Source of the DNA: a virus
UHGV virus genome: UHGV-0858861
Strand: one strand, 5' to 3'
Length of the DNA: 48,885 nucleotides
Positions 6,597-43,154 of the stretch are shown here, piece after piece (positions within the stretch are counted from its first letter, which is position 1; each line of letters opens with the position of its first letter). The notes under the pieces are model-generated. The model saw only the letters and a list, made by a program, of their open reading frames with translations, had not been told where the DNA came from and did not search any database. The position numbers and the translations under genes were made by a program.

Positions 6597-7640
6597 ATGC
6601 CGAATATTGATATTTTTGAACGACGTACAATGCTTGAGCCTGTTATTCAGAATTTCAAGGCTCGTCGTTTTCTTCTTCGTACCTTTTTTCCTGGTGTTCA
6701 GACCTTTAATACAAAGAAAGTTGATCTGGATTTTGTTCGCGGTGGCCGTACTATGGCTCCGTTTGTTGGTAAAGGTTTTGGCTCAAAAACCGTTGAGCGA
6801 CGCGGCTTTGTAACGAGAACTCTGGAGCCACCACTTGTTGCACCTGATTTGGTAACAACAGCAGAGCTGCTTTTAAACAGGCTTCCGGGTGAGAATATTT
6901 ACAACGCAAAATCGCCAGCAGAACGAGCTGCCGAGCAATTAGGTAAAGATTTGCTTGAGCTTGATGAAATGGTTAACCGCCGTGAAGAATGGATGTGTGC
7001 ACAAGTCTTGTTTACGGGGCAGGTTGATATTGTTGGTGAAGGTGTGGATGACACAGTTTATTTTTGGCCTGAAGAGGAAGGAGATAAACCATATCTTGAA
7101 CTGACAGGTGATGATTTATGGAGTGCAGCAAAATCAGATCCGTTGGTCAATGTTCGCAACTGGAAACGTCGGGTATCACTAACTTCAGGTTTTACACCTC
7201 GTGTTGCCGTAATGGGCGCAAAAGTTGTTGATGCTTTCGTTAAAAATGAAGCAGTAACTAAATATCTTGATAATCGCCGAAAAGAGCTTGGGTATATTGA
7301 GCCTAAGGAGTTAGAAGAAGGCGTAACTCATTATGGCAATCTTGAAGGTGTCGATTTTTATGGTTACGACGAACTTATTCGCAATGATAAAACAGGAAAA
7401 CCAGAACCATTAGTACCGGAAGATAAGATCCTCTTTGGCTCTCCTGGTCGAGGAACGATGCTGTATGGTGCTGTAGAGCTTGTAGATGACGCCGAAAAGA
7501 CTCTAACGATTGTTGAGTCACCACGAGTTCCAGACACCTGGGTAACTCGTAAGCCGGCTGGCCGTTATGTTGCCATGAAGTCATCTCCACTGCCTAATCC
7601 TGGTGTGGCTGATGCCTATCTGGTGGCTAAGGTGGTTTAA
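6597..7640 (+). CDS. major capsid protein (lambda gpE family)
   Basis: 347-aa ORF, size and synteny after decoration protein. Confidence 0.8.
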   Translation: MPNIDIFERRTMLEPVIQNFKARRFLLRTFFPGVQTFNTKKVDLDFVRGGRTMAPFVGKGFGSKTVERRGFVTRTLEPPLVAPDLVTTAELLLNRLPGENIYNAKSPAERAAEQLGKDLLELDEMVNRREEWMCAQVLFTGQVDIVGEGVDDTVYFWPEEEGDKPYLELTGDDLWSAAKSDPLVNVRNWKRRVSLTSGFTPRVAVMGAKVVDAFVKNEAVTKYLDNRRKELGYIEPKELEEGVTHYGNLEGVDFYGYDELIRNDKTGKPEPLVPEDKILFGSPGRGTMLYGAVELVDDAEKTLTIVESPRVPDTWVTRKPAGRYVAMKSSPLPNPGVADAYLVAKVV

Positions 7641-8033
7641 ATGGCCAGACTGATTAAAAACATTGATACGATAAGCCACGGCTCGCTAAAAGCGGGCCGT
7701 TTGCTTAATGGGCTAATGGATAACTCCAGAATTGCCGAACTGATTGCGTCAGGACATGCTATTGCCACCGAAGAGGATGGTGATTTGGCATCGGCTGGGG
7801 GCTATGATGCTGCTAAGTTAGCTTTTGAGCATGGATACGCATCTGCTGTTAATGATGCTGTGGACGCGGGGTTGATTACGCGAACGGAGGCGGGTAGCTG
7901 TGTATTCGAGGTTGAGTTTGAGGATGATGGCGGCAATGAGGAAACGGTTGCTGATGATTCATCTGAATCTGTAGCTACTTCTGATACCAGTAATGCGAAA
8001 AAATCAACGCAAAAAAAAGGTAATAAGAAGTAA
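7641..8033 (+). CDS. hypothetical head-associated protein
   Basis: 130-aa ORF tightly coupled to capsid gene; acidic, Lys-rich C-terminus. Confidence 0.35.
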   Translation: MARLIKNIDTISHGSLKAGRLLNGLMDNSRIAELIASGHAIATEEDGDLASAGGYDAAKLAFEHGYASAVNDAVDAGLITRTEAGSCVFEVEFEDDGGNEETVADDSSESVATSDTSNAKKSTQKKGNKK

Positions 8034-18720: not shown

Positions 18721-20511
18721 GTGAGTAAATTATTATTTACGATGACTGACGCCGGGCGTCAGGAGTTGGTTAATGCCAACAAAACAGGAACAAATAAAGT
18801 TGAGATTGTTTCTGTTGGTTTAGGTAGTAGATATTATGTCACGTCAACCTCACAAACAAATATAACAGACGAAATAAAACGACTTACCACAATAGGTGGC
18901 AAAGTTGTTTCCCCTGATACAATTCATGTAACGGCGAAGGATGATAGTAAAGATGAGTATGTTGTCCATACAATAGGATTGTATACAAATAAGGGAAGGT
19001 TGTTTGCTGTATACTCGCAAGAACAAGCAATAATAAATAAAGCATCATCTACTATTGCTTTAATATCAAGTGACATAGCAATTAAGACTCTTGATACTAA
19101 AAATATTACATTTGGTGATATTGAGTTTATTAATCCTCCCGCGACCGAAACTGTTGTTGGGGTTGCAAGATTTGCTAATGAACAAGAAATTGATGCAGGT
19201 ACAGATGATTCCCTTGCTGTTTCAGCAAAGCGGCTTAAGCAAGCCATTGTGAAACATGAGCAATCACGTAATCATCCTGATGCAACTTTAACCTCAAAAG
19301 GCTTTGTTCAACTTAGCAGCGCCACCAATAGCACGTCTGAAACGCTTGCTGCGACGCCTAAGGCTGTTAAGGCAGCATATGACCTGGCTAACGCTAAATA
19401 CACCGCACAGGACGCTACCACGGCGCGAAAAGGGATTGTTCAGCTTAGTAGCGCAACTAACAGCGATTCTGAGACGCTGGCAGCAACGCCAAAGGCGGTA
19501 AAGGCAGCATATGACCTTGCTAACGCTAAATACACCGCACAGGACGCTACCACAGCGCGAAAAGGGATTGTTCAGCTCAGTAGCGCCACCAACAGCACGT
19601 CTGAAACACTGGCCGCGACATCAAAAGCTGTAAAGGTGGTAATGGATGAAACGAACAAGAAAGCGCCCCTGAACAGTCCGGCGCTGAGCGGAACACCAAC
19701 AACACCAACGGCGACTAAGGGAACGAATAACACTCAGATCGCAAGCACAGCTTTCGTTATGGCTGCGATTGCTGAACTTGTAGATTCGTCACCTGATGCA
19801 CTGAACACGCTGAACGAACTGGCTGCGGCGCTGGGCAATGACCCGAATTTTGCGACCACCATGACTAACGCGCTTGCGGGTAAGCAACCGAAGGATGCCA
19901 CCCTGACGGCGCTGGCGGAGCTTGCTACATCAGCAGATAAACTCCCATATTTTACAGGGGCAGATCGTGCCGCGTTAACCGCGTTGACAAGTGTTGGACG
20001 TGCCATTCTTGGTAAAACCAGCACTCAGGGCGTTCTTGATTACCTTGGTTTGGGAGAAGGCTCTGCATTACCGGTTGGTGTGCCTGTTCCGTGGCCTTCA
20101 GCCACACCACCGACAGGCTGGCTGAAATGCAATGGTGCGGCTTTTTCTGCTGAACAATACCCGGAACTGGCAAAGGCTTATCCGACAAATAAATTGCCTG
20201 ATTTACGCGGCGAATTCATTCGTGGCTGGGATGACGGGCGCGGAATTGATACCGGACGTGAGATGCTTTCATATCAGGAAGGCACTATCGTATCCGGGTT
20301 TGATGATAATGATACCGGAGATATCAGTTCACTCAGCTCTACACAATACGGATTTGGTGACACTTTAACCTCTAATCAATGGGCGTCCATAAGTGGCAAA
20401 AGGTGGATATTTGATGCATCCAACAAAGGTGCACAAAAATATGACTGGTGGGCTTATGTTTCAGCTCGCCCGCGCAATATTGCATTTAATTACATCGTGA
20501 GGGCCGCCTGA
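18721..20511 (+). CDS. tail fibre protein (constant N-terminal part plus current C-terminal variable cassette)
   Basis: 596-aa ORF; three tandem ~40-aa repeats (...VQLSSATNS.SETLAATPKAVKAAYDLANAKYTAQDATTARKGI...); 3' end lies inside the invertible segment. Confidence 0.8.
   Translation: MSKLLFTMTDAGRQELVNANKTGTNKVEIVSVGLGSRYYVTSTSQTNITDEIKRLTTIGGKVVSPDTIHVTAKDDSKDEYVVHTIGLYTNKGRLFAVYSQEQAIINKASSTIALISSDIAIKTLDTKNITFGDIEFINPPATETVVGVARFANEQEIDAGTDDSLAVSAKRLKQAIVKHEQSRNHPDATLTSKGFVQLSSATNSTSETLAATPKAVKAAYDLANAKYTAQDATTARKGIVQLSSATNSDSETLAATPKAVKAAYDLANAKYTAQDATTARKGIVQLSSATNSTSETLAATSKAVKVVMDETNKKAPLNSPALSGTPTTPTATKGTNNTQIASTAFVMAAIAELVDSSPDALNTLNELAAALGNDPNFATTMTNALAGKQPKDATLTALAELATSADKLPYFTGADRAALTALTSVGRAILGKTSTQGVLDYLGLGEGSALPVGVPVPWPSATPPTGWLKCNGAAFSAEQYPELAKAYPTNKLPDLRGEFIRGWDDGRGIDTGREMLSYQEGTIVSGFDDNDTGDISSLSSTQYGFGDTLTSNQWASISGKRWIFDASNKGAQKYDWWAYVSARPRNIAFNYIVRAA
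19297..19630 (+). repeat. tandem ~120-bp repeats (about 2.7 copies) within the tail fibre gene
   Basis: Near-identical DNA and protein repeats visible at about 19300-19420, 19420-19540 and 19540-19630. Confidence 0.8.
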
Positions 20512-28026: not shown

Positions 28027-28053
28027 AAGCGCCCAAATCGGGCGCTTTGTTTT
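28027..28053. terminator. bidirectional terminator between convergent genes
   Basis: Hairpin GCGCCC-AAATC-GGGCGC flanked by A-rich and T-rich runs. Confidence 0.55.
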
Positions 28054-29194
28054 ATGGTTTTGCACCTGCGGCCAGTTTATCCGCAGATATCTTTATCAGT
28101 TCCTGTAGTGTCCTGGCTGGTAGGTTTGCATCCAGAACGCTGAGTATGCTGTTGTGATCCGCCTGGTCGACTACTTTGCCTGTCGGTGGTAGTAGCTTGA
28201 GCTGAGGATTCAGGTCCTCGTCAAAGCTGATAAGTGCTCTGGCGTTCCTGAGCAGATCAAGAAGTAAGGCTGATATCACATTTTCCTGAGTCATTGCTGG
28301 CAGATTTAGCGCCGCTTTGGTTTTCCCTGTTGCCTTGTCAAACTCCTTGATTAGTTCCTTCCTGTAGTTCGGTTCCGTTAATAGCCGATTATGCTCTGTT
28401 GCCGCGCGGATAATCGTTTTTTCCTGGTACAGTCGTTTAGCCAGATCTCGCTCGTACTGTGTTTTTAACACGCTGCTGATAGCGTTAAAGGCTTCAATGT
28501 AGGCCAGCTTGATATCCTTCACGCCTGGACCGTCGATACTTTCCATGAGCAAGGTAAATCCGTCTTTTGTCATGCGATATATTGTTATTTCGCGGTCGCT
28601 TCCTTCCAGCGGTCGTTGTTCTTTAAAGAAGTGACGCGCCGCAGCCGTGCGAGGAATGCGTAACGCATCGATGGCCATAACGATGGAATTGTTTGTGGTG
28701 CTGAATGCCTGAGCAACATCGGCTGAGGTTGTGAGTGGCTCGTTGTTGCACACCTTAATGTAAAACATCGGTTTGGCGTTGAGCGTATCGACAACCTCAC
28801 GAGCATTGTTTGGCGAGACGGTAACGGTCGCGGCCGTTTGCGCGTTCTGGTTGAAATAGCAGTCTTCCAGCCGTTCGAACACATCCCACGCTTGGTTAGT
28901 TTCAAGCATTTTGGCGTGACGTGCAGCCCCGCGTTCTGTCCAGAGAATTAGGGAGCGGGCATTTTTACCAACTAACCCGATTGTTTCGGGTCTGTTCTTG
29001 AACTCGCGTAATTCGTTTTTTTCAATTTTAAAGTAATGCTTTCCGGCTACGAATCGCGTCGTGTTGTTCAGAAAGTTATCAGAAATGTTTTTGATTTTTG
29101 TTCCGTATAACTGCGCCAGAAGTTCACTAGTGATAACGGGGATCTGGTTATGCAGGATAGGCTGTAGGGTGTTAACGGTCGGAAGCGTTTTCAT
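28052..29194 (-). CDS. antirepressor-like regulatory protein (ORF6N-like N-terminus + Rha-like domain)
   Basis: 380-aa ORF; architecture of phage antirepressor/Rha regulators; coupled to a small upstream ORF. Confidence 0.6.
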   Translation of the reverse strand: MKTLPTVNTLQPILHNQIPVITSELLAQLYGTKIKNISDNFLNNTTRFVAGKHYFKIEKNELREFKNRPETIGLVGKNARSLILWTERGAARHAKMLETNQAWDVFERLEDCYFNQNAQTAATVTVSPNNAREVVDTLNAKPMFYIKVCNNEPLTTSADVAQAFSTTNNSIVMAIDALRIPRTAAARHFFKEQRPLEGSDREITIYRMTKDGFTLLMESIDGPGVKDIKLAYIEAFNAISSVLKTQYERDLAKRLYQEKTIIRAATEHNRLLTEPNYRKELIKEFDKATGKTKAALNLPAMTQENVISALLLDLLRNARALISFDEDLNPQLKLLPPTGKVVDQADHNSILSVLDANLPARTLQELIKISADKLAAGAKP

Positions 29195-29382
29195 TTTGCA
29201 CCTCCCATAACTACTTTGGTTACGAGGGAGATTTTTGCGTCAGAAACAGCGTTATCGTTGCTGGCGATGCGCATAGCTTCGCGCTCGATGATTTCAGCCA
29301 GGCGTAATTTATCGGCGTATGAGGCTTTCTTGAGAAGGAGCTTTACGAGGTTGACGTAATAGTCATGGGGTAAGTTTGTCAT
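29191..29382 (-). CDS. small protein in icd-like position upstream of antirepressor
   Basis: 63-aa ORF whose stop overlaps the antirepressor start; SD AAGGGA upstream. Confidence 0.4.
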   Translation of the reverse strand: MTNLPHDYYVNLVKLLLKKASYADKLRLAEIIEREAMRIASNDNAVSDAKISLVTKVVMGGAK

Positions 29383-29439
29383 TGTGATGATTCCCTTAAA
29401 GGTTAAGGATACTCACCACCGTCAGGTTCCAATCATTGG

Positions 29440-29570
29440 GTGGTGAGACGTGCAGGGTTGGAACTACCGGACACAATGACGAACCGGCGAGTCTTACGAC
29501 TCCCCCGCACGCCCCACCATAATTTGGGGGTAGCAGTGCTTTACGCATAAAAAAACCGCTAACGCGGTAT
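29440..29570 (-). ncRNA. candidate c4-like antisense RNA region of an immI-like locus
   Basis: Minus-strand leader carries two hairpin-loop copies of GAUUGGAACC (29424-29433 and 29590-29599) flanking a segment with the complementary GGUAGUUCCAACC (29455-29470), plus a minus-strand terminator hairpin near 29550-29570. Confidence 0.3.
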
Positions 29571-29680
29571 GCGCCATTGTGTCTACGGGGTTCCAATCCC
29601 GGCCGTAGATTTTGCTACGGCTCGGAAAGTGTCCACCAATGGCGCATTCATGTCAATACGGCGGGATTTTAACAGACTAA

Positions 29681-29695
29681 ACCACATAGTGTGGG
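29681..29695. promoter_or_regulatory. repressor-type operator-like dyad upstream of the antirepressor operon
   Basis: ACCAC-ATAGT-GTGGG, one mismatch from the ACCAC-N5-GTGGT dyads near cI. Confidence 0.4.
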
Positions 29696-29776
29696 TTTGA
29701 ATGCCGAGCTTTTAATTTTCTTGATATACCAGAGGCGGGAATGTATAGTTCCTTTAAGGAATGACTCAATCCTGAG

Positions 29777-30406
29777 TTGTGGTGTTTTGTTAAAGTTGGG
29801 AACAAGGAAAAAATTCAATATGGGGATAAAAAAATGACTGAAACGTCAAAAAACTCATGTTTTTCAACAATCCACCTAATGATCATAAAAGAACTTAGGC
29901 TAGAAAGAGGTGTGCATCAAGGAGTGCTGGCTCAAGCTGCTGGAAAAACACCAAACGCATGGACAAAGATAGAGAACGGACAGTCTGTATTAACGGTTGA
30001 TGCTCTTTTTGGTGCTTGCTCTGCCCTTAATATTACCCCAATGAATTTCATGTTGTTGGTAGAAAAACTGATTCCCGAATTTAATCGCCATGGTTACTAC
30101 TTTTTCCCGGGAACAATCAGTCAAGACGAGGATAACCTTTTACCTCTGATGCTGAGTTACTTCAACAGCAAGGGATTTGAAGCATTGAGAAATAGGCCAT
30201 TCGAAAGAATTAGCATAAGCTCAATGGGATTTTCATTTCTGGGCGGCTCTCCTGTTATTCCAACTGCTGTAAGGTACTGTTGTGATGAAGCATACAGAAA
30301 TTGGGTCGATAACGGCGCTAAATCGAACATATCAAATGATTCTCTCTCATTAACATTTGAATCATTTGGGAAGGAAGGGGGAGAAACAAAAAAACCGTCC
30401 TTTTGA
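29777..30406 (+). CDS. HTH (XRE-type) domain protein with uncharacterised C-terminal domain
   Basis: ORF (probable start 29834, MTETSKN...) with N-terminal HTH (GVHQGVLAQAAGKTPNAWTKIENGQS); terminator hairpin overlaps its stop. Confidence 0.45.
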   Translation: MWCFVKVGNKEKIQYGDKKMTETSKNSCFSTIHLMIIKELRLERGVHQGVLAQAAGKTPNAWTKIENGQSVLTVDALFGACSALNITPMNFMLLVEKLIPEFNRHGYYFFPGTISQDEDNLLPLMLSYFNSKGFEALRNRPFERISISSMGFSFLGGSPVIPTAVRYCCDEAYRNWVDNGAKSNISNDSLSLTFESFGKEGGETKKPSF

Positions 30407-30744: not shown

Positions 30745-30927
30745 TTGCTCTCGCGTCATTTTCGTCGGTGGGGATGCCGTGAAACGGCCTGTAAGGGCCA
30801 CACAATGAAAAAATACTACATGTGTATTTTTATCGTTGTTACTGGAGCTTTGTTTACGCCACATGGGGAGGGTTGGAAGATTACTGATAACGCTCTGAAT
30901 GTGACGATAAACATTAGCAGCAAGTAG
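30745..30927 (+). CDS. small hydrophobic peptide (about 40 aa from the ATG at 30805)
   Basis: MKKYYMCIFIVVTGALFT... with one predicted TM helix, SD AAGGG upstream, strong terminator immediately downstream. Confidence 0.3.
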   Translation: MLSRHFRRWGCRETACKGHTMKKYYMCIFIVVTGALFTPHGEGWKITDNALNVTINISSK

Positions 30928-32683: not shown

Positions 32684-32698
32684 ACCACAAAGCGTGGT
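32684..32698. promoter_or_regulatory. repressor-type operator-like dyad (or hairpin) between cI-like gene and the 124-aa gene
   Basis: AACCAC-AAAGC-GTGGTT followed by a T-run on the plus strand. Confidence 0.4.
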
Positions 32699-32740: not shown

Positions 32741-33397
32741 TCATAACCAGTTGACAACACTAACTACGCGGCCAAGAACTTTATAACGCTTAAATTCCTC
32801 GTTATTCAGATGCTTAGTGTTCATTTCAGCATCCCTTTCGGTTGACAGCATAACAGCATTGTCACCCGGTATGACTCTACAGTGCCTCAAAACAACCAGG
32901 CCATTTCTGTCTTCAAGGGCATAGATCCCCTCATGAATCTCTGTATCGTCTGTATCAATCAGGACTTGGGAGCCAGGGGATATTGTTGGTGACATTAACT
33001 CATCGTTGCTCTGGAGAACTGACAGAGACGATGGGTTGATGTTCTTGCTTCGTAGAATCTCCTGTTCTATCGCCAGCACTGGCTTTTCTCCGGCGTGCGA
33101 TGCTATGTCATTTTTTATAGCTACAAGCCCAGGAATAACAGGAGCGTTAGTATTCTGGGGTGGGAACGGGTTATCTGTTAAGCACGCGATATAAGGCGCT
33201 GATGCTTTCAGGGCGTGCGCGATTTTCTTGATGGCAGGTATAGATGGTTGTCTTAATCCGGCCTCATAGTTCTGCAAGGTGCTTAAGCCTATTCCAGTGA
33301 CTTGCTGGAGATCTCCGGCAGTCATGCCGGATTGTTTCCGTAGAGTCTGAATGCGCAGACCTATTTCTTTCTTGATGTTCTCGTCGTTGCTTTTCAT
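32741..33397 (-). CDS. CI-like repressor (N-terminal XRE HTH + C-terminal S24/LexA-like peptidase domain)
   Basis: 218-aa ORF; HTH (MTAGDLQQVTGIGLSTLQNYEAG) and C-terminal segment resembling the S24 autocleavage domain; divergent from a Cro-like gene. Confidence 0.7.
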   Translation of the reverse strand: MKSNDENIKKEIGLRIQTLRKQSGMTAGDLQQVTGIGLSTLQNYEAGLRQPSIPAIKKIAHALKASAPYIACLTDNPFPPQNTNAPVIPGLVAIKNDIASHAGEKPVLAIEQEILRSKNINPSSLSVLQSNDELMSPTISPGSQVLIDTDDTEIHEGIYALEDRNGLVVLRHCRVIPGDNAVMLSTERDAEMNTKHLNNEEFKRYKVLGRVVSVVNWL

Positions 33398-33433: not shown

Positions 33434-33552
33434 TACCACATTTAGTGGTTTTCACATGGTAAGACGAGAGGTGGACCACAAATAGAAGGTTATTTTTTGT
33501 TTCGCCCATTGAAAAACTCACGATGTGTGGTTTTAATACCACATATCGTGGT
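33434..33552. promoter_or_regulatory. operator cluster in the cI/cro-like divergent promoter region
   Basis: Dyads ACCAC-ATTTA-GTGGT (33434-33448), degenerate CTCAC-GATGT-GTGGT (33517-33531) and ACCAC-ATATC-GTGGT (33538-33552). Confidence 0.6.
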
Positions 33553-43078: not shown

Positions 43079-43154
43079 GGCCCCTTAGCTCAGTGGTTAG
43101 AGCAGGCGACTCATAATCGCACGGTCATCGGTTCAAATCCGGTAGGGGCCACCA
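43079..43154 (+). tRNA. tRNA with CAU anticodon (elongator-type; ileX-like tRNA-Ile2 or tRNA-Met)
   Basis: 76-nt cloverleaf folded by hand: 7-bp acceptor stem (GGCCCCT/AGGGGCC), D-arm GCTCAGTGGTTAGAGC, anticodon loop CTCATAA, T-loop TTCAAAT, discriminator A and encoded CCA; 1:72 G-C pair excludes initiator type. Confidence 0.85.

Follow-up and report, generated by a model that had tools for sequence, protein, structure and literature searches.

In phage P1, the c4 RNA is cut out by RNase P and represses with Rho-dependent polarity. The GenBank record of P1 gives the order of elements as Oc4, the promoters P2c4 (P51a) and P1c4 (P51b), the sites a1 and b1, the 77-nt c4 RNA, the sites a2 and b2, icd and the overlapping ant1. 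The satellite phage P4 encodes a processed small RNA within the transcript that it controls, with complementary targets on both sides, but this CI RNA works by making transcription terminate prematurely, and the genes under its control are replication genes and not an antirepressor. In N15, the anti-immunity operon immA was reportedly placed by Ravin et al. in 1999 under a small processed RNA. The N15 immA operon encodes Icd, AntA and AntB (PMC4488713). In Gifsy-1, the isrK promoter drives the operon and anrP is left untranslated (280 versus 4 Miller units; Hershko-Shalev et al., PMC4825925), and the published mechanism is activation by IsrK (PMC4825925). Here we describe a locus in the virus genome UHGV-0858861, a stretch of 48,885 bases that we call the window and that was analysed as a whole. 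The locus very probably constitutes an antisense immunity module of the P1 immI type (also the N15 immA and Gifsy-1 isrK type), silencing an antirepressor gene on an Escherichia coli phage-plasmid of ~48.9 kb. The records closest to it are those of the plasmid pHN68-3 (at 98.5% identity) and of Yersinia phage vB_YpM_39 (at 95%), from which it follows that the window is essentially a whole phage-plasmid. Element coordinates are given on the minus strand unless stated otherwise.

A whole-window scan at gathering thresholds placed a full-length match to the Rfam family C4 (RF01695, model positions 1-87 of 87) at 29524..29436, scoring 77.8 bits against a gathering score of 45. The minimum free energy (MFE) fold of this segment is the family consensus, namely a long closing stem enclosing two inner hairpins (-46.6 kcal/mol, z = -5.69), and none of 200 shuffled sequences folded as well. 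Both the MFE fold and the consensus leave unpaired the 13-nt loop of hairpin 2 and the junction that follows it. An earlier inspection of the letters alone (hereafter the sequence-only reading) had proposed a candidate c4-type antisense RNA at this locus and had named fold prediction as one way of checking it. The family match, the fold and the covariation of its recognition elements with their targets, described below, all bear this proposal out. When aligned to the annotated ends of the 77-nt P1 c4, the predicted mature RNA is 80 nt long (29518..29439). The junction between AAUUAU and GGUGGGGCG, at which the annotated mature P1 c4 starts, is identical in the window, and the 3' end of the predicted RNA, ...CCACC, aligns with that of P1 c4.

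The two unpaired segments contain the elements a' (GUUCCAA, 29464..29458), lying in the junction between hairpin 2 and the closing stem, and b' (GUCAUUGUGUC, 29480..29470), lying in the 13-nt loop. Together they are complementary to two sites, a2 and b2, which lie shortly after c4, where translation of the first open reading frame (ORF) begins, and the same sites are doubled upstream of c4 as a1 and b1. The sequence-only reading had come upon part of this arrangement as a repeat, upstream of a small ORF and an antirepressor, flanking a complementary segment. Indeed, GATTGGAACC is present in exactly two copies in the window, both on the minus strand (29598..29589 and 29434..29425), against 0.13 copies expected by chance, and none of 100 dinucleotide-preserving shuffles contained two or more. 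The sites had thus been correctly recognised, although their positions were one base off. Between the two copies lies GGUAGUUCCAACC (29468..29456). Here the earlier description needed trimming, as the complementary segment is real but the contiguous Watson-Crick pairing is 7 nt, UUGGAAC with GUUCCAA, and does not extend over the full 10-mer or 13-mer. It had also caught a1, a' and a2 but missed the second triplet formed by b', b1 and b2.

Both copies of the repeat can sit in hairpin loops, as had been suggested. The upstream copy occupies the 8-nt loop of CGGG-AUUGGAAC-CCCG (29601..29586), in agreement with the consensus hairpin of the Rfam isrK and c4-a1b1 models. Its core, within GAUUGGAACC (29598..29589), is the a1 site UUGGAAC (29596..29590), the complement of a', and the b1 site GACACAAUG (29583..29575), the complement of the b' loop, follows 7 nt past it. 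The downstream copy lies in the loop of a hairpin at 29447..29412, with arms CUCACCACC (29447..29439) and GGUGGUGAG (29420..29412), and contains the a2 site UUGGAAC (29432..29426). The 3' strand of the c4 closing stem doubles as the 5' arm of this hairpin, so that the hairpin and the c4 fold are alternatives and the hairpin is not an independent structure. The b2 site CACAAUGAC (29386..29378), complementary to b' as b1 is, spans the AUG (29382..29380) of a 63-amino-acid (63-aa) ORF, which is preceded by the Shine-Dalgarno-like sequence UAAGGGAA (29398..29391). The composite pattern of an a site, a spacer and a b site was found at only three places in the window, namely a1b1, a2b2 and, on the other strand, c4 itself; 0.04 and 0.00 occurrences were expected by chance for the two spacings searched. 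This composite search revealed no further c4 targets in the window. Additionally, duplex energies at the b sites in the window sequence were told apart from those of shuffled sequence, the duplex between b1 and the b' region having -24.8 kcal/mol, a value equalled by 0.2% of shuffles.

If the a and b elements recognise each other, they should change together among relatives. Related loci were gathered by an exact match to the 16-mer AATTATGGTGGGGCGT, which belongs to the 5' strand of c4 and is common to the window, P1 and Gifsy-1. This yielded 120 viral contigs, from which 95 loci were parsed into 38 distinct a'/b' combinations (16 junction sequences and 26 loop sequences). As the loci were chosen by exact match inside c4, the invariance of the AATTATGGTGGGGCGT segment is itself uninformative. 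We then determined the longest Watson-Crick complement inside fixed position windows for cognate and non-cognate pairs. Across the 38 combinations, cognate complementarity of at least 7 nt was found in 97% at a1, 100% at a2 and 89% at b2; at b1 the figure was 66%, rising to 87% for at least 6 nt. Non-cognate pairs reached at least 7 nt in ~2% of cases at each of the four sites. When the 38 representatives were aligned with MAFFT, pairing over the seven a1:a' pairs was 84.6% versus 58.2 ± 1.9% in shuffles, and six of the seven had changed on both sides. Their covariation score was 0.608 versus 0.151; none of 500 shuffles reached it, and slid controls gave at most 0.177. MAFFT partly misaligns the variable loops and, between classes, the a2 region, and so b1:b', a2:a' and b2:b' were judged by the position-restricted test. 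For the a2-loop hairpin, 90.4% of cells were paired in the relatives and three pairs had changed on both sides, with slid controls at or below 56%.

A sister locus, L109, illustrates the same behaviour within a nearly constant background. It has the same 63-aa gene, the same 380-aa gene behind it and a near-identical promoter, and its main differences from the window are at a1, b1, b', a', a2 and b2, all of which have switched in concert to a different code (a' ACGCCAA, b' UCAUGAUGA). There is also one compensatory pair in hairpin 1 of c4. The position of b2 varies between classes. In most relatives it is found next to the Shine-Dalgarno sequence, 18-20 nt ahead of the AUG, and only the window class (the window, pHN68-3 and L109) has b2 on the AUG, 52 nt past c4, which is a small variation on the c4 scheme. 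The viral contig L058 (IMGVR_UViG_2526164649_000023) contains two c4 genes ~870 bp apart, at 7025 and 7894, with different specificities (a' ACGCCAA with b' GGUAGUCU, and a' UUUCCAC with b' UAUGUUGA), an arrangement that suggests tandem or stacked immunity modules.

These data bear directly on the simplest alternative, that the repeats are chance matches or a functionless decayed remnant or, in a variant, that the region encodes a 66-aa ORF starting with TTG (29396..29596). A mechanically called ORF does cross the region. However, both the 10-mer repeat and the a-b composites are far above chance, two full-length Rfam matches (C4 and, as described below, isrK) exceed their thresholds, six sites change in a coordinated manner in relatives, loop insertions and deletions between relatives are not multiples of three, and the downstream genes are intact. 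The comparative data rule out the coding reading and chance, and the likelihood that we would leave to this explanation is very small. Family membership, the fold, the three-fold arrangement of sites and their covariation are established for this locus.

Upstream of c4, a promoter-like site at 29656..29628 consists of a -35 element TTGACA (29656..29651), a 17-nt spacer and a -10 element GACACT (29633..29628), with a predicted transcription start at the G at 29621. In the alignment, its position corresponds to the annotated P1 promoter P1c4 (P51b) and to the -35/-10 pairs of 38 related loci. Between this start and c4 lies an IsrK-type leader RNA (29621..29549), comprising hairpin 1 (29621..29602), hairpin 2 with the a1 loop (29601..29586), b1 and an intrinsic terminator. 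The Rfam model of the Hfq-binding RNA isrK (RF01394) matches the leader over positions 1-77 of 77 with 70 bits against a gathering score of 50. The upstream hairpin noticed in the sequence-only reading is therefore genuine, but it is part of a leader RNA with its own terminator. The latter, ACCGC-GUUA-GCGGU followed by U7 (29568..29549), was found by a terminator scan and is the 3' hairpin of the isrK model, and an element of the same kind is present in P1, N15 and Gifsy-1. Since the terminator ends a short leader RNA, both c4 and the mRNA need read-through; the antirepressor operon lies directly downstream.

An alternative hairpin, UGGCGC-AUACC-GCGUUA (29576..29560), has a 5' arm with a two-base overlap with b1, and some of its bases also belong to the 5' arm and loop of the terminator. 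It raises the question of whether the locus could work as P4 does, with c4 binding to nascent a1/b1, breaking this hairpin as an antiterminator and so favouring the terminator at 29568..29549, while the block of translation at a2/b2 would be secondary. An equivalent helix (-7 to -9 kcal/mol) was present in every leader class examined, including P1, and it beat shuffles in most of them. In Gifsy-1, excess IsrK raises downstream transcription 8-fold, and the authors raise P4 CI-like termination control by STnc1160, a small RNA of the operon, as a possibility (PMC4825925). Nevertheless, the antiterminator helices are short and G+C-rich, and the mean pairing energy differs little between cognate and non-cognate arms (-7.75 versus -6.84 kcal/mol), so that covariation lends the helix no support. 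The 8-fold rise in transcription would also be explained by Rho-dependent polarity after a translation block. Moreover, a mechanism of this kind leaves unexplained why a2 and b2 are conserved, covary with c4 and lie on the ribosome-binding site or AUG in every class. We therefore regard termination control as an unlikely primary mechanism.

The first gene behind c4 is the 63-aa leader ORF (29382..29191), taken from the ORF list and located at the position of P1 icd. It matches PHROG 7886 (E = 3.4e-46), to which no function is assigned, and its stop codon overlaps the start of the next gene as ATGA (29194..29191). It is not an Icd homologue: BLASTP gave no alignment with P1 Icd, Pfam was also negative, and there was no match to NCBIfam phage_ICD_like, a model against which P1 Icd itself scores 52.6 bits. 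The second gene (29194..28052) encodes a 380-aa antirepressor with an N-terminal ORF6N domain and a Rha domain (Pfam ORF6N 1.4e-20, Phage_pRha 2.7e-12), which matches PHROG 8244 end to end and many further anti-repressor PHROGs. BLASTP detected no similarity between this protein and P1 Ant1 (best E-value 3.7), and homology to P1 Ant1/Ant2 was rejected in favour of an ORF6N plus Rha type. The closest RefSeq record, pHN68-3 (NZ_CP141847), splits the antirepressor (6707-7849) into two annotated pieces, an ORF6N pseudogene and a regulator of the Rha family, whereas the window has one intact 380-aa ORF.

The arrangement suggests a model in which the module holds the antirepressor silent. We infer transcription from the proposed promoter, RNase P processing, a translation block with polarity, and titration of c4 by the leader. 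Transcription from TTGACA-17-GACACT would start at about 29621 on the minus strand. Part of the transcripts, and probably most of them, would end at the terminator, giving an IsrK-like leader of ~73 nt that carries a1 and b1 as decoy sites, whereas read-through transcripts would contain c4 (~29518..29439), which, by analogy with P1, would be cut out by RNase P. Its a' and b' elements would then pair with a2 and b2 on the operon mRNA. With b2 over the AUG, this pairing would keep ribosomes from starting the 63-aa ORF, which would remain untranslated because b2 covers its start codon. The antirepressor, joined by the ATGA overlap and lying behind ~190 nt of untranslated RNA, would be silenced by the loss of translational coupling and probably also, as in P1, by Rho-dependent polarity. 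The element would then stay a plasmid-prophage and be immune to relatives with the same a/b code.

Several observations weigh against this model. The promoter scan called no minus-strand promoter, since the -10 element GACACT is weak, matching at 3 of 6 bases; the promoter is proposed only from the alignment to P1 and the other relatives. A strong terminator stands between the promoter and c4, so that c4 output hinges on read-through. The c4-a1b1 model (RF03163) scores the leader at 39.8 bits, below its gathering score of 46.7 and overlapping the isrK match, whereas it passes in P1 (51.0 bits) and Gifsy-1 (48.1 bits). The 7-bp duplexes of the a sites do not by themselves stand out from shuffled sequence (for a2, at -8.8 kcal/mol, 28% of shuffles do as well), and the case for the a sites therefore rests on the comparative data. 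The related loci themselves form one sub-family tied by descent and recombination, and are not independent samples. Finally, the antirepressor has its own strong GGAGG ribosome-binding site, and strict translational coupling is consequently not assured. Apart from the c4-a1b1 score, by all sequence criteria tested the RNA module is a member of the C4 and IsrK families.

The presence of a1 and b1 on the leader means that it can compete for c4, which is a role that fits the fold of the full-length window transcript, in which a1/b1 pair in cis with a'/b', and the effect of IsrK supplied in trans in Gifsy-1, where an excess increases anrP translation 139-fold (PMC4825925). In Gifsy-1, a stable ~80-nt RNA (STnc1160), complementary to IsrK, is processed from the 'orf45' region (PMC4825925), and Gifsy-1 lysogens show high expression of both this RNA and IsrK in every condition tested (PMC7067206). 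The 'orf45' mutations C159U and C162U raise anrP translation more than 100-fold, and the published compensatory pairs G31/C159 and G28/C162 are base-pairing partners of IsrK and 'orf45' (PMC4825925). We checked the numbering of these mutants against the Rfam coordinates, taking isrK +1 as position 2219 of the Gifsy-1 record (NC_010392). On this basis, the first 'orf45' AUG has its A107 at the A of AAUUAUGG, where c4 starts, and the position of the second AUG (119-121) agrees as well. The Gifsy-1 a' (CGCCAA) then contains both C159 and C162, and its a1 (UUGGCG) both G28 and G31, which makes the published helix the one that a1 and a' form in the P1 scheme. The double mutants did not regain full repression (224 and 327 units versus 4; PMC4825925), which, by our own inference, is expected if a' must also pair with a2.

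The Gifsy-1 work also offers a different explanation, in which the c4-like segment is a cis-inhibitory mRNA structure that is opened in trans by the leader, free c4 having no function. Genetic and structure-probing data led to this mechanism being put forward for the Gifsy-1 homologue (PMC4825925), and the cis pairing of a1/b1 with a'/b' in the full-length fold of the window transcript agrees with it. However, the segment is a full C4 member whose AAUUAU junction is identical to that of P1, where a free 77-nt RNA is annotated, and the stable ~80-nt species is processed from the equivalent region of Gifsy-1. The 'orf45' frame on which the explanation relies closes after 8 codons in the window, and the covariation of a2/b2 with a'/b' is not required by it. 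Regulation purely in cis thus seems to us quite improbable, somewhat more so than control by termination. Returning to the antisense model, it is a tentative proposal, to which we give somewhat less than even weight, that the terminated leader of the IsrK family is a built-in c4 decoy, with the ratio of leader to c4 deciding antirepressor synthesis, and that P1 immI, N15 immA, Gifsy-1 and the window are one system. If this is true, what was published as 'orf45'/STnc1160 would be c4 RNA, and there may be a further feedback of c4, by way of b1, on the terminator of the leader.

The IsrK paper (PMC4825925) does not cite the P1 c4 work, IsrK and c4 are listed apart in a 2025 review, and isrK does not belong to the C4 clan of Rfam; the literature searched treats the two as unrelated. 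Linking the two invites a new interpretation of the Gifsy-1 results, with IsrK as a decoy for an antisense repressor. The main value added here is this connection between two literatures, together with a catalogue of a/b specificities. The window element itself is an unannotated member of an already known RNA-switch family and is ordinary in kind.

A distant BLAST search found the region in 186 phage records, most of them Stx and other lambdoid phages, but also phages of Klebsiella, Enterobacter and Salmonella. The exact locus is present in 56 plasmid records, 55 from Escherichia (including E. fergusonii) and one from Klebsiella; among the matches listed, the plasmids are 47-50 kb and all non-mobilizable. 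Neither among the plasmid matches listed (of the 56) nor in the closest phage record is any feature annotated under the locus. Public annotation, among these matches, thus omits a standard c4-type secondary immunity switch. One of the 56 is from E. coli ATCC 25922, whose 48.5-kb plasmid NZ_CP009073 has a 98.8% identical locus at 19179-19436. The code a' GUUCCAA and b' GUCAUUGUGUC can be given for a common family of 47-50 kb E. coli phage-plasmids, including the one in ATCC 25922, and the a/b code predicts which relatives are hetero-immune. More generally, the comparison shows one RNA module passing among phages of the P1-like, N15-like and lambdoid (Stx, Gifsy) kinds, with many a/b specificities and guarding unrelated antirepressor genes.

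The surroundings of the locus contain further candidate regulatory elements. Palindromes of the form CCAC-N5-GTGG occur six times in the window versus 0.32 expected (29682-29694, 32685-32697, 33436-33448 and 33539-33551, and also at 18887 and 22727). Three of them flank a helix-turn-helix (HTH)-S24, cI-like repressor gene (32741..33397), and one lies ~67 bp upstream of the leader start, midway to a divergent promoter at 29721-29749. They may be operators of the primary repressor; if so, the antirepressor operon would also be repressor-controlled, as at P1 Oc4. The divergent promoter, TTGATA-17-TATAGT, precedes an HTH gene on the plus strand (29777-30406), and an imperfect 17-nt inverted repeat (29738-29772) overlaps its -10 element. 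By analogy with Mnt in P22, the HTH protein could be a dedicated regulator of the antirepressor operon. Just past this gene, a full-length match to the ryfA RNA (RF00126; 30657-30955, plus strand; 134.6 bits versus 80) overlaps a mechanically called 60-aa ORF (30745..30927) with a hydrophobic stretch, and this region may be a small-toxin locus. A tRNA gene is located at 43079-43151 on the plus strand (67 bits).

The likeness to P1/P7 immI asserted in the sequence-only reading holds for the order of the elements, which matches that annotated in P1, and not for the proteins. The window and P1 share the succession of promoter, a1, b1, terminator-like hairpin, c4, a2, b2, small ORF and ATGA-overlapped antirepressor gene. 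They also share the c4 scaffold, including the AAUUAU junction, with a' in the junction past hairpin 2 and b' in the hairpin-2 loop (CTGTCAA and CACTAAC, respectively, in P1), the a1-b1 spacing of 7 nt and the phage-plasmid lifestyle. In P1, a terminator-like hairpin lies between b1 and c4 and the isrK match is sub-threshold at 35.1 bits, from which it follows that a leader with a terminator belongs to the P1 design too; in the window the leader terminator is compact and canonical, and the isrK score is twice as high. The recognition sequences differ (P1 a1 TTGACAG, b1 GTTAGTGC), and so, therefore, does the immunity specificity. In addition, b2 covers the AUG in the window but the icd Shine-Dalgarno or ribosome-binding site in P1, neither the small ORF nor the antirepressor is a homologue of its P1 counterpart (Icd and Ant1/2, respectively), and the candidate primary repressor is a LexA-like HTH-S24 protein instead of P1 C1. 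No second promoter or C1 operator of the P1 kind was identified at the window locus.

Gifsy-1 presents the same succession of an IsrK-family leader with a terminator, a full C4 match and an antirepressor gene. Directly upstream of anrP, within 2206-2404 of its record, are matches to isrK (79.3 bits), c4-a1b1 (the 48.1 bits given above) and full C4 (69 bits, 2321-2404), and the C-terminal region of the antirepressor shares 89% DNA identity with the window over ~300 nt. In contrast to the window, the C4 match of Gifsy-1 lies inside 'orf45', and b2 abuts the anrP Shine-Dalgarno sequence without a separate leader ORF; in the window the 63-aa ORF intervenes and the 'orf45' frame is closed.

In N15, matches to isrK (62.4 bits) and C4 (78.8 bits) stand in tandem upstream of the immA antirepressor operon, and an annotated Rho-independent terminator falls inside the isrK match. 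N15 differs from the window in being linear, with a protelomerase, in its a/b sequences, and in its Icd, AntA and AntB proteins, which are unlike the 63-aa ORF and the ORF6N-Rha protein. Nevertheless, both are phage-plasmids of similar size that combine a LexA-family prophage repressor with an RNA-controlled antirepressor operon, and N15 immA is the nearest overall analogue of the window locus.

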